Below are positions 9,839 through 24,207 of a stretch of DNA of 25,809 nt, one piece after another (position 1 is the stretch's first letter; every line of letters starts with the position of its first letter). The notes below the pieces were generated by a model. It ran no database searches. It was not told where the DNA came from and saw nothing but the letters and a program-made list of their open reading frames with translations. This stretch comes from a virus. The translations under genes were made by a program, and so were the position numbers. Location: positions 76,476 through 102,284 of the IMG/VR virus record IMGVR_UViG_3300002131_000176. One strand, 5' to 3'.

Positions 9839-10284
9839 TGTTGTGGAATATTGAAGTTGGTGATACTTTTGTCGATAGCGATATTGACTTAGATCAATTA
9901 GAAAAGCATTTGGCTGAAGAATACCGAGATGGATATTCAAGTTATGAAAACACTCGTAACGGTCTAATCGCTGAACATTTTCTTATTGAAAAATGTGGTT
10001 ATAGTAACGATGTCACGCCTTATAAAGATTTATTTAATCCAGAAGGGGTTTCTGTTGAAGTAAAAACATTCGGCGTTCATCGTGATCCTGATGCATGGAT
10101 GGAAGAAGTACTGCATGGTGGTAAACATAGTTTACGTAAAAGAAAAGTGTTATGGAAAAAAGATATATCTAACCATATAATCTTTTTCCAACGAGATGAG
10201 AATAGGTATATTTGTTATGCAAAATGGGTATTTGGCGAAAAAGGCCGATATATATGTGTACATAAGCTCGAATCTATGGTATAA
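9838..10284 (+). CDS. Putative PD-(D/E)xK endonuclease
   Basis: GLIAEHFL...YKDLFNPEGVSVEVKT (E...D...ExK). Confidence 0.5.
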   Translation: MLWNIEVGDTFVDSDIDLDQLEKHLAEEYRDGYSSYENTRNGLIAEHFLIEKCGYSNDVTPYKDLFNPEGVSVEVKTFGVHRDPDAWMEEVLHGGKHSLRKRKVLWKKDISNHIIFFQRDENRYICYAKWVFGEKGRYICVHKLESMV

Positions 10285-10285
10285 T
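10257..10285 (+). promoter_or_regulatory. Early-type promoter
   Basis: GTGTACA-17-TATAAT with TGG; the -10 box contains the upstream stop codon. Confidence 0.75.
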
Positions 10286-10304: not shown

Positions 10305-10652
10305 ATGCGTGAATCAATTAAAGTCTTACAAGAGTGTGCAGAAATCCAAGATCGAAAGTCTCGTGATTATCAAAATGAAAAGTCACGAATCCGTCAAGCA
10401 GACTACTACCCTCGTGGTGTGATGTCTATTATGGAACTAATCAATACTAAAACAATCCGTTTGTGGTCAGTACTAGAAGCCATGGAAAACGATCCTAACT
10501 ACGAACCTAACTTCGAATCAGTCGAAGACTCACTTAAAGATCTGATCAACTATGCTTCTTTTGCCGTGTCATATTCACGCGGTAAGATCGACGGTCAAGA
10601 TCCATCGCGTGATTTTTTAAACCGCAAAACAAAAGAATACCCGGTATTGTAA
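10305..10652 (+). CDS. Nucleotide-modification-associated domain 1 (Nmad1/DUF1599-like) protein
   Basis: QDRKSRDY...K..RL...ESVEDSLKDLINYA. Confidence 0.75.
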   Translation: MRESIKVLQECAEIQDRKSRDYQNEKSRIRQADYYPRGVMSIMELINTKTIRLWSVLEAMENDPNYEPNFESVEDSLKDLINYASFAVSYSRGKIDGQDPSRDFLNRKTKEYPVL

Positions 10653-11459
10653 ATGCACTTTAAAATTGCAATCATTGGCCATGGATTTGTTGGTAAAGCT
10701 GTTGACTATGGATTTACCAATCCAAAAGTAATAAAGCAAACTATTGATCCAAAGTATAACAATAATGTTAACCATATCGATATTAGCACCGACTTAATAT
10801 TTGTGTGTGTTCCTACACCTATGGGTGATTTTAGTATTATCCGTAATACGATGGAGCAGTTAAAGCTACGTGGTTTTTTAAATCATAGTATGGTAGTAAT
10901 TAAATCTACAGTACCGCCAGATGTGTTAAAGGAATTTGCAACAAGCAGTGTGGTGTATAACCCTGAGTTTTTAACTGAAAAGTCGGCTTCTGAACAATTT
11001 ATTAATCCACCGTTTCACATTTTTGGTGGAGATACCCGGGCTTCAGACACGCTTGAAAGATATTATCAGCAATATAGCCTATGCAATATTTGTCCTTCGT
11101 ATAAATTGACTATTGAAGAAGCTTCAGTTGTAAAATATACTATTAATTCTTTCCTTGCAACCAAGGTAGCTTTCTTTAATCAACTTTATAGTATGTGCGC
11201 TGATAATGGTTATAATTTTAATCAAATTATTCAAGCTGTAGGTGCTGATTCTCGTATTGGACACAGCCACACCAAAGTGCCGGGGTTTGATGGAAAACTA
11301 GGGTTTGGCGGAGCGTGTTTTCCTAAAGATACCCAAGCTTTTGTTAACTTTAGTGATAAATTATCAGTATTAGAAGCTGTTATAAGTGCCAATAATACGA
11401 TGCGTGCTGAATACGAGTTAGATGACCGTGAAAAAGAACAAAAAATTATGTACAAATAA
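10653..11459 (+). CDS. UDP-glucose/GDP-mannose 6-dehydrogenase family (short form)
   Basis: GHGFVG, CVPTP, KSTVPP, NPEFL, KYTINSFLATKVAFFN, GFGGACFPKD (catalytic Cys). Confidence 0.9.
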   Translation: MHFKIAIIGHGFVGKAVDYGFTNPKVIKQTIDPKYNNNVNHIDISTDLIFVCVPTPMGDFSIIRNTMEQLKLRGFLNHSMVVIKSTVPPDVLKEFATSSVVYNPEFLTEKSASEQFINPPFHIFGGDTRASDTLERYYQQYSLCNICPSYKLTIEEASVVKYTINSFLATKVAFFNQLYSMCADNGYNFNQIIQAVGADSRIGHSHTKVPGFDGKLGFGGACFPKDTQAFVNFSDKLSVLEAVISANNTMRAEYELDDREKEQKIMYK

Positions 11460-11477
11460 CAGATTCTGTTGTATAAT
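11449..11477 (+). promoter_or_regulatory. Early-type promoter for the gp42 operon
   Basis: TGTACA-17-TATAAT; AGGAG RBS follows. Confidence 0.75.
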
Positions 11478-11500: not shown

Positions 11501-12148
11501 ATGTTAAAGGTATCTGATATACGCACTCTTTTTGTCAAAGCTTTGGCAGATGAGCGTTTTACCACAGATCGTAATGGATCAAAAACCATTGAGATCCTTG
11601 GTGCATCATTCGTAGCTGATGAGCCAGCTATCTTTGGCGAACCAAGCTATGAATATATCCAGCGTGAATTTCGATGGTACAATTCAATGTCTAGCAACGT
11701 CAATGATATTGAAGGTACTGTACCTGCTGCCTGGAAAATGACTGGAAACAAGCACGGCGAGATTAATTCAAACTATGGCTTATTAGTTTACTCAGATAAA
11801 TTTTATAATCAATTTAAAAGAGTCGTGGAAGAATTACAAACTAATCCGGATTCTCGCCGTGCGTCTATGATCTACACTCGTCCATCGATTTGGAATGAGT
11901 ACAATGAGAATGGCAAAAACGACTTCATCTGTACCAATTCAGTCACATACTACATTCGTGATAGTAAGTTGCATTGTGTAGTTCAGATGCGTTCCAACGA
12001 TGTCGTCTATGGCTATAAGAATGATTATGCCTGGCAGCTGCATCTTTTACACCAAGTAGCAAATACTTTAAATGTTGAAACCGGTACTATTACATGGCAA
12101 GTTCAGAATTTGCACGTGTACGAACGCCATTTTAATCTTGTAAGCTAA
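11501..12148 (+). CDS. 42: dCMP hydroxymethyltransferase (T4 gp42-like)
   Basis: KTIEILGASFVADEP, YIQRE..WY, GEINSNYG, NPDSRR..MIYTRPS, DFICTN, MRSNDVVYGYKNDYAWQ (Asp175 = cytosine-specifying residue), LHVYERHF; closely parallels T4 gp42. Confidence 0.92.
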   Translation: MLKVSDIRTLFVKALADERFTTDRNGSKTIEILGASFVADEPAIFGEPSYEYIQREFRWYNSMSSNVNDIEGTVPAAWKMTGNKHGEINSNYGLLVYSDKFYNQFKRVVEELQTNPDSRRASMIYTRPSIWNEYNENGKNDFICTNSVTYYIRDSKLHCVVQMRSNDVVYGYKNDYAWQLHLLHQVANTLNVETGTITWQVQNLHVYERHFNLVS

Positions 12149-13104
12149 TGAACGTAATCACTAATCCAATATCAAACATTCCAAAGAATGAGAAGTCGCA
12201 TGTGCTTGGTTGGTCTTTGTTATGGAAAGATCAACTCAAAGCATCTATAGATCATAAATGCACTCCGTACATTAAGAATGCTGATGTAGTATATATTGAG
12301 CATGGCGCTAATTTTGGTGGCACCCTTAATTTGTTTGGTGGTGCAAATAAGGAAGTATTTGATAAAATCAACCTTGTAATGTCTTGCACTAACATCGTGT
12401 CTTTAGATTGGGATATGCCAGATTACGGCGCTATGCTAAAGAAACGGCTCGATGCTCCTACTACATATAAAGGCATTACTGAGAAATGGTGCGACCTTGT
12501 ATCAAAACGGATACAAAGTATTTCCTCACTCAAACAGAAAGACCTGTTGACTGATGGTGTCACAATCGGTGATTCGCATACCATAGCGTTTAGCGGCGTA
12601 GGCGATCGGGTGTATCGCGCTGATGGTAAAACCCTTTTTGGAACTTTAAAAAAAGGATTACGTCAGGATTTTGGCGAACTTGTTGGTAAAGCTACCTTTT
12701 GTATGGGGTCAATTGATATTAGGCACCACATCTTACGCTATCCTGATTTTTCTTTAAAAGATACTATTAAGGACTATGTAAGCCAGGCCAAAGAATTAGC
12801 TGATGATGTATGGTTTGCTGCTCCAGTTCCAGTAGAGTTTGAAGGAAGACGCATTCCTAAATCTGGATTTTATAAGAAGACTCCTTTTTTTGGTTCTTGG
12901 AAAGACCGACAAGAGCTTACCAATAACTTTATTGATATGCTATATACTGAGTCAAAAGGTAAAGTTGTAATGCCACCAAAAGAATGGTACACTATGGATC
13001 CTGAGAAATACGCAAATACGTTTATGGAACATGGTTCGTCTTTTCACATTGCACCGCCATTTCATTTTAGAAAAAACTGGGGAGTAACAGCACTTGCCGC
13101 ATAA
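12148..13104 (+). CDS. Uncharacterised protein, C-terminal SGNH/GDSL-like domain
   Basis: IGDSH, GKTL, GSIDIRHH, SSFH blocks; translationally coupled to gp42 (TAATG). Confidence 0.55.
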   Translation: MNVITNPISNIPKNEKSHVLGWSLLWKDQLKASIDHKCTPYIKNADVVYIEHGANFGGTLNLFGGANKEVFDKINLVMSCTNIVSLDWDMPDYGAMLKKRLDAPTTYKGITEKWCDLVSKRIQSISSLKQKDLLTDGVTIGDSHTIAFSGVGDRVYRADGKTLFGTLKKGLRQDFGELVGKATFCMGSIDIRHHILRYPDFSLKDTIKDYVSQAKELADDVWFAAPVPVEFEGRRIPKSGFYKKTPFFGSWKDRQELTNNFIDMLYTESKGKVVMPPKEWYTMDPEKYANTFMEHGSSFHIAPPFHFRKNWGVTALAA

Positions 13105-13990
13105 TAACCATGTAATTGACGGGGTCAACCGAGACATAAATCCGTTTTATGGCGATCCAAAAGAATATTATTTAGAGATGGCAAAGGATTGGGAAGATCC
13201 TTATGGAATGCCAGAAATTGTGACACATGACGGAATCAGGGTGGTGCGGGATGATTTTCTTGTAGGATCAAAAGTACGTGGTGGAGATTGTTTGATATCA
13301 TCGCTGCCTGAGCATATCGATACCATTGTGTATGTTCAGCCTAGGACTGGTTTAGCAGGTGTATCAATCCTTGATGTAGCAAAGCGCCATAATAAGAAGG
13401 TGCGACTGTTCATGCCTTCTTCTCAGAAGATTTCAGTGCATCAAGCCTGTTGTATCGAACGTGGGGCTGATGTATCTTTTCATCGTATTGCTGCAATGCC
13501 TAATCTAAATTTGATTGCAAAGAAATGGGCTAGTGAACATTCGAATGCATTCTTTGTTCCTCTTGGATTAAAGCATGAACGTGTGACAGCAGGTATTGTA
13601 AAGTCTGCTTCACGCATACCAGCGCCTGATGTCGTGTATACTGCCACGTCCACGGGCGTGCTCACCCGCGCGCTTCAGATTGCTTGGCCAGATGCTGAAT
13701 TTGTATCTGTCTGTGTATCACGTAATATGAAAGCGGGTGAACTTGGTAAAGCTAAGCCCATTTCTGAAAACCTTGCATTTACTTCAAGCGAGAAAAAAGA
13801 GAACTTACCACCATTTCCTAACATAGATACCTACGACGGAAAGGTATGGAAATTTATACCTAAGAATAGTGATAAAGATATTCTATTTTGGAACGTAGGC
13901 CGTGAGCCAGAGCTTATTAACAAATCGATTATTGATCAAACAGACTCATATCGCGATTGGGAAAAGAATGTCAAACAAATGGCTGAATGA
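13094..13990 (+). CDS. PLP-dependent enzyme (fold type II/PALP-like)
   Basis: VVRDDFLVGSKVRG (putative PLP Lys), TATSTGVL phosphate loop, YDGKVW, LFWNVG; TTG start with GGAG RBS. Confidence 0.8.
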   Translation: MPHNNHVIDGVNRDINPFYGDPKEYYLEMAKDWEDPYGMPEIVTHDGIRVVRDDFLVGSKVRGGDCLISSLPEHIDTIVYVQPRTGLAGVSILDVAKRHNKKVRLFMPSSQKISVHQACCIERGADVSFHRIAAMPNLNLIAKKWASEHSNAFFVPLGLKHERVTAGIVKSASRIPAPDVVYTATSTGVLTRALQIAWPDAEFVSVCVSRNMKAGELGKAKPISENLAFTSSEKKENLPPFPNIDTYDGKVWKFIPKNSDKDILFWNVGREPELINKSIIDQTDSYRDWEKNVKQMAE

Positions 13991-15023
13991 AGAAGCTCTG
14001 GATGTATTAGTTAACTACTATTACCCACGCGCAAAATGGTTACAAGATAATTGCAACTGGGGCGATATATCTTATCTAGGATCAGAAGCTGATAAAGCAG
14101 TCAATGATCCATTAATGCAATATATTGACATTTACGATTGTTACACACGCGATGCGGCTGGTTTTTCGAATGTATTACAGGACTTAAAGTTTCGTGTTAA
14201 CACACCCAAGAGACACCATCAAATTAAAAACTCAGCTCTCGGCCAAAAACACTGGGATCTTGTCGATAGTTATATTACTGAAAGTTGGGATACCAAGACT
14301 TGGTTCTATACTTACTTTGTTCATCGTATTACAGGTTCTGGCGCATCGTTCACGCGTGACCACGGCTATCGCAATAATGTAGTTCAACATTTTGGTAAGC
14401 TGCGTGATATCAAAGATATGAAAGCTTTCATGATTGAGAAAAAGCAATCTGGAAAGCCTTTATTTACTTCGATTGGCAACCAGCCACCGTCACCCCGTAA
14501 AGGCGTTACGTGTCTTGATTTTATGGTAAACGAACTTGAACCTTTAGTTGATCGTTTTATGGAATGGTTGCCAAAGGAAGGCCGTAAAAGGACTCATAAA
14601 GAAGTAGTTGATTATTTGAATGAGTATAACATAGAACAAGGTCACAAGCGATTTAACTTTGTGTATGCTGCATTCTCATATGATATGGGTGACTACCACA
14701 AAGATTTAGTTGATGATATGTCGCATGGCTACTTTGGTAATAACGCGATACGATGCATGAAGCTCTTATCAAACGGGTATACTACGGACGAATTCATGGA
14801 TCTTCTCTGTGAGCGCATGGGAGGCGCACCACGTGATAACGAAGACGTAATGTGTGACTTTGTTCGCTTTGGCCAAAACTATGTACCACGCAGCGATAAC
14901 ACCTTTGATCATGTGCCATCCGATATAAGTAATAAATCTGGATGGGAGTCTGGGTGGGAACAAAGACAAGGCCAACCGAATATTGCAAAAAACGATTTAC
15001 AACTTGATGCTTTCATGGTATAA
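13968..15023 (+). CDS. Divergent amino acid:DNA transferase / aGPT-PPlase-like protein
   Basis: N-terminal DPLMQYIDIYDCYTR and C-terminal EDVMCDFVRF resemble the DPIL..Y.F.N..R and E..LCE..KY motifs; adjacent to the PLP enzyme; start ATG 13968. Confidence 0.55.
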   Translation: MSNKWLNEEALDVLVNYYYPRAKWLQDNCNWGDISYLGSEADKAVNDPLMQYIDIYDCYTRDAAGFSNVLQDLKFRVNTPKRHHQIKNSALGQKHWDLVDSYITESWDTKTWFYTYFVHRITGSGASFTRDHGYRNNVVQHFGKLRDIKDMKAFMIEKKQSGKPLFTSIGNQPPSPRKGVTCLDFMVNELEPLVDRFMEWLPKEGRKRTHKEVVDYLNEYNIEQGHKRFNFVYAAFSYDMGDYHKDLVDDMSHGYFGNNAIRCMKLLSNGYTTDEFMDLLCERMGGAPRDNEDVMCDFVRFGQNYVPRSDNTFDHVPSDISNKSGWESGWEQRQGQPNIAKNDLQLDAFMV

Positions 15024-15024
15024 T
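14996..15024 (+). promoter_or_regulatory. Early-type promoter
   Basis: TTTACA-17-TATAAT with TGG; overlaps the upstream stop codon. Confidence 0.75.
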
Positions 15025-15035
15025 AGACGTATATT

Positions 15036-15668
15036 ATGAGCAATGATTTAAAAGACTTAATTTCTACTCCATTAGATCTACCATTAATTGAGCCTACAAG
15101 CTGGGATGATTGGTGGGATTTGTGGAACAAGGAATCTGCATATACGCCTAAAGTAATAAAAACACATAACAATGTGAGTTCTCCATGGAAAGGCCTTGAG
15201 ATATGGTCTAGGCCTGGTATAAATTCAAGGAGTATAGTGACATATGATGCGAAAAATGTCAATCGGCCTGACTTATTTCCATCGATTTTTGATAACCTAG
15301 ATAAATTTCCTATTAAAATCGATATAGTTAGAGTTGTTTCAAATTTTGTAACAGTTATACCACACAGTGATGCACTTCCAGATAAAAAAATATTAAGTGT
15401 GCGATCTATGCTTTATAACACTAATATTGAACCAACGTTTAATTACAGATTGAATGGCCAAAAAGTATACCAAACACTTCCTAAAGATACAAACACATGG
15501 ATGTATTGGGATCATAAAACTAAACATGCTGCTGATTTTCATCATGGGTATACTAAACATTTAATAACTATATATGGCCGTCAAAAGGCTAATTATAATG
15601 AGTATATTGAAAAAAGTGCTAACATGTATAAGGACCATGCTATTTTTAACACAAAAACAATGGAATAA
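15036..15668 (+). CDS. Putative 2OG-Fe(II) oxygenase/cupin-like protein
   Basis: PHSD (HxD)...KHAAD distal His...basic residue then hydrophobic strand. Confidence 0.5.
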   Translation: MSNDLKDLISTPLDLPLIEPTSWDDWWDLWNKESAYTPKVIKTHNNVSSPWKGLEIWSRPGINSRSIVTYDAKNVNRPDLFPSIFDNLDKFPIKIDIVRVVSNFVTVIPHSDALPDKKILSVRSMLYNTNIEPTFNYRLNGQKVYQTLPKDTNTWMYWDHKTKHAADFHHGYTKHLITIYGRQKANYNEYIEKSANMYKDHAIFNTKTME

Positions 15669-15673
15669 AAATT

Positions 15674-15871
15674 ATGACAGAACCCAAGAAACGACTTAAC
15701 GACGTTACGCCTGAGGAATGGAACAAAGCTCACGATAAATGGGCTAATGAATCTACGCTAGTTCACTCAGAACATTACTACGACTCTGACCGCAACAAAC
15801 CATTAAATGATGAAAAAAATGATACAAACTCCGACTGGGACAACTGGAAACCATCAAAAACATTTGTCTAA
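15674..15871 (+). CDS. Small hypothetical protein
   Basis: 65-aa ORF, LNDVTPEEW motif. Confidence 0.55.
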   Translation: MTEPKKRLNDVTPEEWNKAHDKWANESTLVHSEHYYDSDRNKPLNDEKNDTNSDWDNWKPSKTFV

Positions 15872-16316
15872 CGAGCATAACAGCTGGGACCATGTATTTT
15901 TACGACTTGCTAAAGAAGTAGCATCATGGTCTAAAGACCCCTCAACCAAGGTAGGCGCAATTGCTGTCGGCCCTAAACGCAATGTTTTGGCTCAAGGCTA
16001 TAACGGTTTTCCTAGAGGTATTTTTGATTATGCCGAAAGATATGATGATAAACCTACTAAGTACATGTATGTCGTCCATGCAGAGATGAATGTCATTTAT
16101 AATGCTACGTATAATGGTGTTTCACTTGATGGTGCATCACTTTATATTCATGGATTGCCGCCGTGCTCTGAGTGCGCCAAAGGCATTATACAAGTTGGCA
16201 TTAAAGAAATTATAACTGAAACCGCTGGCATTCCTAAAAAATGGCAAGATTCATGGGAATTTTCTAAGAGTATGTTTGATGAAGTAGGTATCACTGTTCG
16301 AACTATCGAAAGATAA
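15807..16316 (+). CDS. cd: dCMP deaminase
   Basis: SKDPSTKVGA, GYNGFPRG, HAEMN, PCSECAKGIIQVGI; start may be TTG 15864. Confidence 0.95.
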   Translation: MMKKMIQTPTGTTGNHQKHLSNEHNSWDHVFLRLAKEVASWSKDPSTKVGAIAVGPKRNVLAQGYNGFPRGIFDYAERYDDKPTKYMYVVHAEMNVIYNATYNGVSLDGASLYIHGLPPCSECAKGIIQVGIKEIITETAGIPKKWQDSWEFSKSMFDEVGITVRTIER

Positions 16317-16317
16317 A

Positions 16318-17274
16318 ATGGCAAATATTTTAATAACCGGCTGTGCAGGCTTTATTGGATATCACACAGCAATAAAGCTCCACGGTGAAGGCCACCGCGT
16401 GACTGGCATTGATAATTTTAATAATTACTATGATGCTAATTTAAAGATTGCTCGCAGCTCTTTATTAGAAAAAAATGGTATCATGGTTATTAGAGGTGAT
16501 ATTACTAATACGGTTGATGTTGAATATGCAGTTACTTCAGCTGCACCTGATGTCGTGGTGCACTTGGCTGCGTATGCCGGTGTTCGACATTCGTTAAATA
16601 ATCCACAGCTGTATATCGATAATAATATTACTGCCACTAATAATTTAATTCAGATTTGTGAGCAACGTGGAGTGGATAGAGTAATTTATGCTTCCACCTC
16701 TGCTGTCATGGTAGGTAATGAACTGCCTTGGAATGAAACCGAAAAATTAGGTTATCAGCTAAATGCATACGCATACTCTAAGGCTGCTAATGAATCTCAG
16801 TTCATGTCAAGCAAATTGCCAGTTGCCATTGGCCTTCGATTCTTTACTGTCTACGGTCCATGGGGTCGCCCAGACATGGCGCTGTTTAGCTTTACTAAGT
16901 CAATCATAGATGGTACACCAATTAAATTATTTAATTATGGTGATATGATTCGTGACTTTACTTACATTGACGATATTATCCAAGGCATTAATATTGTTAT
17001 CAGTCACGCAAATAATACACCAGTCCCGCTAAAAACAGTGTATAATATAGGTTATGGCAAACAAGTTCAACTCATGGACTTTGTGAGTGAAATCGAAAAG
17101 AACGTTGGTAAGGAGGCAATTAAAGAATTGGTTGAAAAACACCCGGCTGATGCACAAACTACCTGGTCAGACACTACCAAACTTCAAGCGCTTGGTTATA
17201 AACCAACAACATCAGTAGAAGTTGGTGTTGCTAAATTTGTTGAGTGGTACAAAGAGTACTACAATATCGTATAA
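16318..17274 (+). CDS. NAD-dependent epimerase (UDP-glucuronate 4-epimerase/WcaG-like)
   Basis: TGCAGFIG, HLAAYAGVRHS, YAYSK, LRFFTVYGPWGRPDMA, RDFTYIDD. Confidence 0.92.
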   Translation: MANILITGCAGFIGYHTAIKLHGEGHRVTGIDNFNNYYDANLKIARSSLLEKNGIMVIRGDITNTVDVEYAVTSAAPDVVVHLAAYAGVRHSLNNPQLYIDNNITATNNLIQICEQRGVDRVIYASTSAVMVGNELPWNETEKLGYQLNAYAYSKAANESQFMSSKLPVAIGLRFFTVYGPWGRPDMALFSFTKSIIDGTPIKLFNYGDMIRDFTYIDDIIQGINIVISHANNTPVPLKTVYNIGYGKQVQLMDFVSEIEKNVGKEAIKELVEKHPADAQTTWSDTTKLQALGYKPTTSVEVGVAKFVEWYKEYYNIV

Positions 17275-20170: not shown

Positions 20171-20328
20171 TGATTGATGTAATTGATTATAACGAAGATT
20201 CAGATGAAGGTCCTGCAACGATGCGGGTATTGCTTGATGCTAAGGCCAAAAAGAATCTAATTGAACTTGGGTTTATTGCATCACTTAAAAGATCCATAGA
20301 AGAATATGAAGAAAGTCTAAAGAAATGA
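20170..20328 (+). CDS. Small hypothetical protein (52 aa, not in ORF track)
   Basis: MIDVIDYNEDSDEGPATMRVLLDAKAKKNLIELGFIASLKRSIEEYEESLKK; coupled at both ends (TAATG, ATGA). Confidence 0.7.
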   Translation: MIDVIDYNEDSDEGPATMRVLLDAKAKKNLIELGFIASLKRSIEEYEESLKK

Positions 20329-21472: not shown

Positions 21473-22096
21473 ATGCTAGAAACAATATGTGAAGTAATGG
21501 TCGACGCGTATAAGCGCAATTGGATCACCAGCCGTGATGGTAATGTAAGTATCCGTCACCATGATCGCGATCATTTTTATATCACGCCGAGCGGTGTTCG
21601 TAAACAGACACTACAGCCAGATCAATTTAAAAAGATTAAGATTGTAAACAGTTTTGAATACCGTCAGTTAGAGTACACAGACATCAGCGCCAAACTAACA
21701 CCTAGTGGAGAGATTCCTCTACACTTTGGTTTACAAAGAGCAATGGGACAACATGCTGGAGATGTCCGTGTTGTAGTCCATGTGCATCCCACATATTGTA
21801 TTGCTGCTATGCATGCTGGTATTGATCTAAGCACAATCAGTGATGCCTTTCCAGAACTGAATCGGTATACTCGAGTTGCTCCTAATGTTGGAGATGTACC
21901 TCCTATCAGTCAAGAACTTGCTGATCAGTGTCATGAAAATCTGCAACTAGACAAAAATGGTAATATTGCTTATGACATTGTGGGTATTAAAGGTCATGGA
22001 GTTGTTGCTATTGATACATCGCCGTGGCGTGCATACGAACATATCGAACGCTTAGAACATATTTGTAAGATTGTGCTTGCAAGCGGAAAATATTAA
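21473..22096 (+). CDS. Class II aldolase/adducin family protein
   Basis: DGNVS, ITPSG, PSGEIPLH, VVHVHP, GHGVV metal ligands. Confidence 0.92.
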   Translation: MLETICEVMVDAYKRNWITSRDGNVSIRHHDRDHFYITPSGVRKQTLQPDQFKKIKIVNSFEYRQLEYTDISAKLTPSGEIPLHFGLQRAMGQHAGDVRVVVHVHPTYCIAAMHAGIDLSTISDAFPELNRYTRVAPNVGDVPPISQELADQCHENLQLDKNGNIAYDIVGIKGHGVVAIDTSPWRAYEHIERLEHICKIVLASGKY

Positions 22097-22101
22097 AAAT
22101 A

Positions 22102-23286
22102 ATGACTAAAAAAACAGTTGCGGTAGTAGGTGCAGGGATATCTGGTGTATGCGCAGCGTATTACCTTGCTCGAGCAGGATATGCGGTAACAGTGTATGAC
22201 GCAGAGCGCTATCCCGCCATGCGAACTAGTTTTGCCAATGGCGGACAAGTGAGTGTCAGTAACAGCGAGGTGTGGAATACCTGGAGTAATGTATTTAAGG
22301 GTATTAAGTGGATGTTTCGCAAGGATGCTCCTTTGCTTATCAAACCCAGTTTTGAATGGGCTCGTATCAAGTGGATAAGCAAGTTTTTGTGGACAACTAT
22401 GCGAGGTCGTGCAGATGCAAACACTGCGGAGACTATTCGCATGGGACTAGAAGCCCGAGCATTGTACAAAGACATCATTGCAGAAGAGAGTCTAGAGTTC
22501 GATCAATCAAACAGTGGCATCCTACACTTCTATAAGAATCCAGAATATCTACAAAACGCACACAATGTAAAAGAATTGTATAACGCAAATGGGTGTTCTT
22601 GGGATATGCTAGGCGAAATGCAAACCAAATCAATGGATCCTGCACTAACACAAATTAGTGGCATTGTAGGTGGTGCATGGACTGGTGAAGACTGGACTGG
22701 TGACATACACAAGTTCTGTACTGAATTATGTAAGGTGTTAGAGTCAAAGTATGGCGTGGAATTTAAGTTTGGAATGGAAGTAAATGGTAAGCTATTAGGA
22801 TATGATGCTGTAGTTATTGCTAACGGCGTAGGTAGTACGCGATTAGCAAATACTATTGGTGATACTTTAGATGTTTATCCAGTTAAGGGATATAGTATTA
22901 CTATCAACGTCAGTGATGATAATATGAAGTATGTACCAAAGGTTAGTCTATTAGATGACGAGGCAAAGATTGTTACCAGCACACTAGGAAACCGATTCCG
23001 TGTTGCAGGTACAGCCGAACTTGCCGGAGAAGACTACGATATCAGACGTGATCGCATTGAACCCTTGTTGAATTGGGTACACACTAACTTTCCCAATATA
23101 AATACCAGTGACTACACACAATGGGCATGTTTGCGTCCTATGGCACCAGACATGATGCCTATTGTCAAACAAAGTAAGGTTGATAGCAGAGTATTTTACC
23201 ATACTGGACACGGACACTTGGGTTGGACACTAAGCCCGGCAACTGCTAAAAAATTAACAAATGCGGTGTTAAATGCGCATTTTTAG
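22102..23286 (+). CDS. dadA: FAD-dependent D-amino acid dehydrogenase (DadA-like)
   Basis: GAGISG, TSFANGGQ, YPVKGYSIT, RVAGTAE, WACLRP, GHGHLGWTLS. Confidence 0.88.
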   Translation: MTKKTVAVVGAGISGVCAAYYLARAGYAVTVYDAERYPAMRTSFANGGQVSVSNSEVWNTWSNVFKGIKWMFRKDAPLLIKPSFEWARIKWISKFLWTTMRGRADANTAETIRMGLEARALYKDIIAEESLEFDQSNSGILHFYKNPEYLQNAHNVKELYNANGCSWDMLGEMQTKSMDPALTQISGIVGGAWTGEDWTGDIHKFCTELCKVLESKYGVEFKFGMEVNGKLLGYDAVVIANGVGSTRLANTIGDTLDVYPVKGYSITINVSDDNMKYVPKVSLLDDEAKIVTSTLGNRFRVAGTAELAGEDYDIRRDRIEPLLNWVHTNFPNINTSDYTQWACLRPMAPDMMPIVKQSKVDSRVFYHTGHGHLGWTLSPATAKKLTNAVLNAHF

Positions 23287-23466: not shown

Positions 23467-24207
23467 ATGTCTAGTGATATTTTAGATATTTTATACACGC
23501 CTATCGATACTCCTCCTGTTCCTGATTATAATAGGCTCGAGCTAGATAAATGGTGCGCTAAAAATGCACCTAATCAGCACGTTGTAAATAGGCGAGATGG
23601 TTCGAAAGAAGCGCGTATTCAAGATACTGGAATGCATTTTTCCAAGGTATATCCGTGGGACATAGTTTATGCAAGAAACAACTATGCGTGGCTTGACGAT
23701 TTCGATATTAAGTTTTCACAATTATCAACTTACTTTTGTTCAATTTTTTCATTGGAACCAGAAGTCATTTCTTCTATAGTATTCCTTCCTGTAAAAACAA
23801 ATTATACAGGAACAACGTATTGGCATGCAGATCCTGATGAAATTGGTTTAAGACTGTATATTGAAAATAATGAAACTGATGGGGACTTTTTATTAATAAA
23901 ACCAACAGTAGAAAAATATCAGTCACGGTCAGAATGGGGATTCATTCCTCCAGTAGATGGCATTTCACCTAAGATACAAAATGTGATGCACTCAGCAAAA
24001 GTAACAAAACCGCAACAAGCTTTTTATATTAATAATGTGAGAGCTGTACACGCAGTAAATGTTAACGTTCCTAATCTTCGTAGGTTGGCTGTCTTAGTTC
24101 TTACAAAAAGAACCGCGGCAACTACTACAGAAGAAACAAAAAAGCTGATATTAAGTTCAGCTGAAAAATATCCAGATCATGCAATTAAATGGTCGCAACA
24201 GAGGTGA
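23467..24207 (+). CDS. Putative 2OG-Fe(II) oxygenase/cupin-like protein
   Basis: WHAD (HxD)...AVHAVN...RRLAVLV; N-terminal YTPIDTP resembles STPLDLP of 15036. Confidence 0.5.
   Translation: MSSDILDILYTPIDTPPVPDYNRLELDKWCAKNAPNQHVVNRRDGSKEARIQDTGMHFSKVYPWDIVYARNNYAWLDDFDIKFSQLSTYFCSIFSLEPEVISSIVFLPVKTNYTGTTYWHADPDEIGLRLYIENNETDGDFLLIKPTVEKYQSRSEWGFIPPVDGISPKIQNVMHSAKVTKPQQAFYINNVRAVHAVNVNVPNLRRLAVLVLTKRTAATTTEETKKLILSSAEKYPDHAIKWSQQR

Follow-up and report, generated by a model that had tools for sequence, protein, structure and literature searches.

On a contig from a T4-like phage (102 kb, estimated to be 61% complete), within the replication region, the gene for a gp42-type dCMP hydroxymethylase is followed by an ORF encoding 318 amino acids, here named Q. 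This arrangement raises the question of what is done to 5-hydroxymethylcytosine (hmC) in such a phage, and by what kind of enzyme. A preliminary description of this DNA had proposed that Q is a chimera, in which a domain resembling the N-terminal domain of T4 beta-glucosyltransferase (BGT) is fused to an SGNH domain. We analyzed Q together with its relatives and with the 25,809-nucleotide stretch of DNA that contains it (positions 76,476–102,284 of IMG/VR record IMGVR_UViG_3300002131_000176; hereafter, the window). Gene neighborhoods were compared across 73 Q loci with at least 2.5 kb of flanking sequence on each side; these loci are related to one another, their counts are not independent, and most of the contigs are incomplete.

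Gene Q and its genomic setting

Q is tightly packed between its neighbors. Its ATG overlaps the stop codon of the upstream gene (TAATG, 12146–12150), and its 3′ end overlaps the start of a gene for a PLP-dependent enzyme. The main features around Q are as follows.

10305–11459, plus strand: DUF1599-like gene and UDP-glucose dehydrogenase gene; variable members (40 and 22 of the 73 loci, respectively)
11449–11477, plus strand: promoter-like site, TGTACA-17-TATAAT, 5′ of the gp42–Q–PLP–transferase run; consensus match only
11501–12148, plus strand: gp42-type dCMP hydroxymethylase; 51% identity to T4 gp42; makes hm-dCMP, by homology
12148–13104, plus strand: Q, 318 amino acids; BGT-like N-domain and SGNH-fold C-domain; PHROG 13881/17781
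13094–13990, plus strand: PLP-dependent enzyme, related to M6 gp52; its start overlaps the end of Q
13968–15023, plus strand: x13902, a putative aGPT-Pplase-type DNA transferase (EDxxC motif, ESM features, fusions to Q)
15807–16316, plus strand: dCMP deaminase; in relatives, mostly between gp42 and Q
16318–17274, plus strand: NAD-dependent epimerase; variable member (17 of the 73 loci)

Sites similar to the promoter-like sequence were found at 10257–10285 and 14996–15024; the three best sites are located at gene boundaries, and the overall count equals chance. The UDP-glucose dehydrogenase (10653–11459) and NAD epimerase (16318–17274) genes flank the cassette, also in loci lacking the PLP gene (L072, L075, and L082–L085), and no glycosyltransferase gene was identified near them. 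Further downstream, at 21473–23286, the window encodes a class II aldolase-like protein and then an FAD-dependent D-amino acid oxidase-like protein; the same aldolase family occurs inside the cassette elsewhere. Two other ORFs of the window (15036–15668, 210 amino acids; 23467–24207, 246 amino acids) had no significant family match, and no relatives of the former were seen in related loci.

Q is matched by PHROGs 13881 and 17781, both of which are annotated as of unknown function. It has no Pfam family, and sequence searches of Pfam and the PDB with Q and its profiles yielded nothing significant; PF09198, the family of T4 BGT, was matched by one of 148 Q family members (E = 0.024). We collected 617 relatives at 90% clustering, or 383 at 50% clustering, and the atlas clusters of Q were 99–100% viral. 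The matches in bacterial genomes were to MAG contigs, most of them with phage genes around the match, and were read as mis-binned phage DNA. The family is large, uncharacterized, and apparently restricted to viruses. Among 50,697 phage records, 43 contained a match to Q, none of them from the ViI or M6 groups, and 40 belonged to phages of the 44RR/31/25 type, which are the main cultured carriers.

The AlphaFold2 model of full-length Q had a pLDDT of 96. The motifs quoted in the preliminary description were all found in Q (NLFGG at residues 61–65, SLDWDMP at 85–91, GDSH at 141–144, GSID at 187–190, and SSFH at 297–300), and, as judged from the alignment of 148 relatives, they are not a chance resemblance. 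Nine residues (G141, S143, H144, D190, R192, H194, R234, R254, and H300) were invariant in this alignment.

The N-terminal domain is probably related to that of T4 BGT

The N-terminal part of Q comprises the following features.

12148–12546, plus strand: N-domain, residues 1–133; related to the N-terminal acceptor/DNA-facing domain of T4 BGT
12328–12342, plus strand: NLFGG, N61–G65; aligned by hhalign to N70-F71-F72-G73-G74 of BGT
12406–12447, plus strand: D87 to R100; D87 aligned to BGT D100 and R100 to BGT R115

Residues 1–134 folded alone gave a pLDDT of 96.5. In the structure comparison that the preliminary description had suggested for this region, VIA ranked T4 BGT first among 48,161 chains (1c3j residues 2–163; Z = 6.2, rmsd 3.3, 102 aligned) and T4 AGT second (1y6f; Z = 5.1), followed by unrelated folds at Z ≤ 5.0, with TIR domains at 4.6–5.0. 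A Z of 6.2 is modest and not decisive alone, because values in this range are common among unrelated alpha/beta domains. Foldseek returned TIR/flavodoxin-like folds, and BGT was not ranked and was also absent from its top 1000. In the comparison of profiles with hhalign, the N-domain was matched along 100 columns to an alignment of six BGT sequences (P = 91%, E = 1e-6, score 46.5). This score exceeded those of all controls: none of 60 block shuffles scored above 25.7 and none of eight other families above 17, and reversed BGT and the C-domain of BGT reached 13.6 and 13.7, respectively.

The residues paired in this alignment were N61 with N70, F63 with F72, G64 with G73, and G65 with G74 of BGT, and N61, F63, and R100 were conserved in 147, 124, and 137 of the 148 relatives, respectively. 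The BGT residues N70, F72, and R115 are those that we take to contact the DNA at the flipped base. D87 of Q aligns, across a two-residue gap, with D100, the catalytic base of BGT (10.1101/2023.12.21.572611); this position is Asp in 107 relatives (72%) and Glu in 11 (7%). On the basis of these conserved positions, the N-domain may flip hmC out of the DNA. With moderate to good confidence, given that the evidence is of moderate strength and Foldseek is silent, we consider the N-domain of Q to be homologous to the N-terminal, Rossmann-like acceptor domain of BGT. The chimeric architecture is supported to the same degree by the top matches to T4 BGT and AGT, the profile score above all controls, and the SGNH fold of the C-domain.

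The C-terminal domain is an atypical SGNH domain

The remainder of Q comprises the following features.

12547–13086, plus strand: SGNH-fold C-domain, residues 134–313; matched to 1yzf by VIA and to 3mil by Foldseek
12568–12579, plus strand: block I GDSH with the putative nucleophile Ser143; invariant in 148 sequences
12706–12729, plus strand: block III-like G(S/N)IDIRHH; Ile/Val at the usual oxyanion Asn position
13027–13047, plus strand: E294 to H300; invariant block V His without the DxxH Asp; E294 is a candidate third triad residue

For this half of Q, the SGNH fold anticipated in the preliminary description was recovered by both methods: VIA aligned residues 134–313 with 1yzf (Z = 11.4, rmsd 3.2, 151 aligned) and Foldseek matched the domain to 3mil (E = 2.5e-4). 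There were 49 chains at Z ≥ 8, and almost all of the 50 best VIA matches listed were SGNH/GDSL proteins. The fold matches include the SGNH transferases OatA and PatB, and most of the top matches are esterases. Ser143 and His300 are invariant in the 148 sequences, down to approximately 27% identity, and the candidate block II Gly, G160, assigned by motif, is present in 135 of them at the expected spacing. The block III Asn (of GxND) and the block V Asp (of DxxH) are missing: residue 189 is Ile or Val, residue 188 is Ser or Asn, and residue 297 is variable. Q is therefore an atypical member of the superfamily. Other active SGNH members also lack the block III Asn and block V Asp, namely SASA, PatB1, and CE2 (PMC9487903). 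In Q, Glu294, which is retained in 147 of the 148 sequences, may take the place of the block V Asp, and the invariant residues H144, D190, R192, H194, R234, and R254 suggest an anionic substrate or donor.

The upstream gene encodes a dCMP hydroxymethylase

In the window, Q does lie directly downstream of gp42, as the preliminary description stated; in relatives, the two are mostly separated by a dCMP deaminase gene. The upstream gene retains the positions of Cys148 and Asp179 of T4 gp42. In all 90 thymidylate-synthase-like genes examined in Q loci, the cytosine-type Asp was present, whereas the dUMP enzyme of M6, used as a control, has Asn. The idea of hmU as the product of the upstream gene was discarded on the basis of this Asp and of the 51% identity to T4 gp42.

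Q is paired with or fused to transferase-like partners

A gene for an aGPT-Pplase-type DNA transferase-like protein was located beside Q, or fused to it, in 72 of the 73 loci. In 65 of these 72, the partner was of the window type (x13902), and 57 of the 65 also encoded the PLP enzyme; the other seven had a PF18723-type partner, six of them with myo-inositol-1-phosphate synthase and none with the PLP enzyme. Fusions of Q to x13902-type partners were found in at least 12 proteins, and all seven x13902-family hits of at least 752 amino acids were such fusions. Fusions to PF18723-type partners were represented by 44RR ORF233 and P0217 (45 bits, above the cut-off). In the latter (L117:1331–4276), three parts are joined: an FkbM-type methyltransferase, a PF18723 domain, and Q.

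The EDxxC motif is invariant in the x13902 family, and the ESM features of x13902 scored 0.91–0.95 to the HMUDK_hel/ADDT clusters. Sequence comparisons were not significant: 66 x13902 members had no Pfam match, including to PF18724 (AADT); the hhalign comparisons with M6 gp51 and gp55 were weak (P under 2%), and the comparison with the PF18723-type partners also yielded no significant match. A profile score between x13902 and a paralog was inflated by shared members and was left out of the evidence. In the amino acid:DNA transferases, Glu and Cys are essential (PMC8989533). We infer that x13902 is an aGPT-Pplase-type transferase, whose EDxxC motif recalls the Glu/Cys of AADT, although the sequence link is weak. 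A paralog-like gene of approximately 325 amino acids with an EDKxC motif occurs in the cassette of 19 of the 73 loci (L065:3511–4494, L053:7034–8029, and L105:5377–6264), which recalls the paired aGPT-Pplases.

The PLP gene matched PALP below the cut-off (E = 5e-4) and phrog_7093 (E = 2.7e-34), and its product was 24% identical to M6 gp52 (pairwise E = 5e-7), a decarboxylase of amino acid-base adducts (PMC8989533). Within supported clades of the Q tree, loci with the PLP module alternate with loci carrying the inositol module, so the step performed by Q is independent of the final group. In distant loci (L136, L138, L140–L142, L144–L146, L117, and L126), the PLP module is replaced by genes for myo-inositol-1-phosphate synthase, a short HAD-like protein, and a PF18723-type protein. 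Several inositol-type loci have a C5-cytosine methyltransferase-like gene immediately after Q, which is odd for an hmC phage. Serine hydroxymethyltransferase or class II aldolase genes are sometimes inserted in the cassette (L036:6215–7351, L042:1271–2470, L021:9822–10433, and L120:3335–3949) and hint at substrates derived from serine/glycine or sugars.

In the thymidine pathway, a kinase must activate the hydroxymethyl group, by creating a leaving group, before transfer (PMC8989533). A kinase resembling M6 gp54 was found in none of the 73 Q loci. The PF18748 profile detected M6 gp54 as a control; the complete genomes of 44RR, 25, and PTm1 gave no match to it, and neither did seven partial contigs. 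The contig of the window itself is an estimated 61% complete, so that a kinase gene may lie beyond it. A divergent kinase could be missed in these searches; PF18751 was not usable as a kinase test, given that it did not match M6, and the phmmer search with gp54 lacked a positive control.

Q in cultured phages

[quoted passage not shown] The uncharacterized ORF233c of 44RR, ORF233c of 31, and ORF225c of 25 are full-length homologs of Q (26–32% identity, TM 0.88). Unlike in the window, Q of 44RR and 31 is fused to a PF18723-like domain and located beside a sodium:solute symporter gene. In 44RR (L001:6402–10382), the symporter gene is directly 5′ of the fusion gene, and the symporter may import the nucleophile, perhaps inositol, rather than its being synthesized.

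Phage 25 has a stand-alone Q with intact catalytic residues, on a branch of the Q tree three times longer than that of its sister. Here, Q is paired with, and preceded by, genes for a UDP-galactopyranose mutase and a glycosyltransferase-like protein (L002:5770–9041), making a galactofuranosyl modification a candidate in this phage. In the Tenacibaculum phage PTm1, a divergent Q lies amid the genes for ribonucleotide reductase (L151:6965–7984), and a TS-like gene, likewise divergent, is located elsewhere (L153:1183–1860); as judged from the motif register, its specificity position is occupied by Asp. An aGPT gene was detected neither in phage 25 nor in PTm1.

A proposed role for Q and its alternatives

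We consider it very probable that Q acts on hmC in phage DNA, within an as yet undescribed pathway of cytosine hypermodification. In the scheme that we propose, gp42 would make hm-dCMP, as its homology indicates, for incorporation into the DNA, and Q would act post-replicatively on the DNA-borne hmC. Its BGT-like N-domain, in which the fold and residues are retained, would bind the DNA and present the hydroxyl of the flipped hmC; the SGNH domain, which replaces the UDP-glucose domain of BGT, would move a group, probably acyl, from a putative donor onto this hydroxyl via Ser143/His300. The ester on hmC would be the leaving group, to be displaced by a nucleophile that the aGPT-Pplase-type partner would bring in by means of its Glu/Cys motif. 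In the window, this nucleophile might be an amino acid, then trimmed by the PLP enzyme; in other lineages, it might be an inositol-type polyol. The role of Q for hmC would then correspond to that of the P-loop 5-hmU DNA kinase for hmU in ViI and M6.

That Q performs the activating step, in which esterification would turn the hydroxymethyl of hmC into a leaving group and take over from the kinase used in thymidine hypermodification, is the likeliest interpretation, to which we attach somewhat less than an even chance, the chemistry being putative. It is favored because this step would be common to different end products and an activator is otherwise missing. The near-constant pairing or fusion with aGPT-Pplase-type proteins, which the preliminary description had overlooked, likewise favors an activating step in a multi-enzyme pathway over the stand-alone DNA-base O-acyltransferase or esterase it had envisaged, which we regard as less likely. 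Several points count against activation by Q, however: the weak sequence link between x13902 and AADT, the retention of Q without a detected aGPT gene in phage 25 and PTm1, the absence of the block III Asn and block V Asp, and the presence of Asp in only 72% of relatives at D87. Furthermore, the PF18723 clade is not known to act as a transferase, and M6 gp55 was dispensable (PMC8989533).

Q might instead be a terminal or independent O-acyltransferase, leaving a lasting acyl or aminoacyl group on hmC, or on an amino acid, inositol, or sugar attached by the partner. The OatA and PatB transferases among its fold matches would suit such a role, as would its occurrence without an aGPT partner in PTm1 and, beside a glycosyltransferase-like gene, in phage 25, and the base of PaMx11 is completed by an acetyltransferase (PMC8989533). 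We regard this as unlikely while deserving consideration, because the aGPT-type partner would be left without an activator, no kinase having been found, the products to be acylated by a single enzyme would differ greatly, and a BGT-type N-domain fits a bare hydroxymethyl group. Activation of hmC by a non-acyl group (phosphoryl, nucleotidyl, carbamoyl, or other) via H144, R192, H194, R234, and R254 is quite unlikely: the many invariant basic residues speak for it, as do the missing oxyanion Asn and triad Asp, and phosphate is the leaving group of known transferases (PMC8989533), but no SGNH protein with such chemistry was among the matches listed, and the basic residues may instead bind DNA or the phosphates of CoA. 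A hydrolase that removes acyl groups or trims intermediates on DNA, as in editing or deprotection, is a decidedly improbable explanation. The top SGNH matches are mostly esterases, and the fold alone cannot separate hydrolases from transferases; nevertheless, an acyl-adding gene was never a constant neighbor in the 73 loci, and the problem of the activator would persist.

The substrate would be hmU, with thymine positions modified, if the adjacent dCMP deaminase (61 of 73 loci) turned hm-dCMP into hm-dUMP, and the partners of Q do resemble thymidine-hypermodification enzymes. We judge this very improbable, considering that thyX occurs nearby (at 20325 in the window; 28 of 73 loci), that the N-domain of Q resembles those of hmC enzymes, and that denB and alc in 44RR, 31, and 25 imply the replacement of cytosine (PMC2993671). 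We give least credence to the idea that Q is a non-catalytic DNA-binding adaptor delivering hmC to the transferase, or that its likeness to BGT reflects a common alpha/beta fold. The modest Z of 6.2, against 4.6–5.0 for TIR domains, and the silence of Foldseek on BGT point in this direction, whereas the profile match to BGT beats all controls and Ser143 and His300 are invariant across 148 sequences as distant as approximately 27% identity.

If Q does activate hmC in this way, it would be the first enzyme of the SGNH fold with a DNA base as its substrate, in which a base-presenting domain derived from BGT is coupled to a Ser-His transferase, so that hmC would be activated without a kinase. It would also form the constant center of a widespread pathway by which amino-acid-derived or inositol groups are added to cytosine in marine T4-like and Aeromonas phages. 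We hold this proposal as a serious possibility, just short of an even one. A literature search, with subscription journals mostly outside its coverage, found no description of an SGNH member acting on a DNA base, of SGNH-dependent phage DNA modification, or of inositol hypermodification. If true, the proposal would add a novel enzyme architecture, the hypermodification of bases without a kinase, and non-sugar decorations of cytosine in abundant marine phages, with relevance to the evasion of restriction and CRISPR, and possibly a tool for hmC labeling. The DNA modification of 44RR, 31, and 25, open since 2010, is directly testable in these growable phages.

Comparison with known systems

T4 BGT (PF09198, 1c3j) and AGT (1y6f) share with Q the fold of the N-domain; N70/F72/G73/G74 and R115 of BGT have counterparts in Q, and D87 is a candidate counterpart of D100. 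The BGT gene, like Q, adjoins gene 42, and its product acts on hmC-DNA, the probable substrate of Q. Unlike Q, BGT has a UDP-glucose C-domain; Q has the SGNH domain in its place, with no match to the BGT C-domain. Because the UDP-sugar donor domain is absent and the C-domain is of the SGNH type, Q is not a GT-B glycosyltransferase. With the SGNH/GDSL superfamily (1yzf, 3mil, the OatA C-domain 6vjp, and PatB 7tjb), residues 134–313 of Q share the fold, the block I Ser, a candidate block II Gly (G160, by motif), and the block V His. Q differs from the usual members in its extra invariant His and Arg residues, its Lys-rich insert, its fusion to a DNA-facing domain, and its lack of the block III Asn and block V Asp.

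The thymidine clusters of ViI, M6, and PaMx11 (PF18748, PF18724, PF18723, and PLP decarboxylase; PMC8989533) resemble the Q cluster in combining a TS-family hydroxymethylase, a related PLP enzyme, and an aGPT-Pplase-type gene with a Glu/Cys motif, the last being putative in the Q cluster. In contrast to ViI and M6, the Q cluster has a cytosine-type hydroxymethylase, Q in place of a kinase, none of which was detected, a far-diverged transferase-like gene, and an inositol variant. From this comparison, the Q cluster is not a thymidine cluster of the ViI/M6 type, although it probably works in a similar way.
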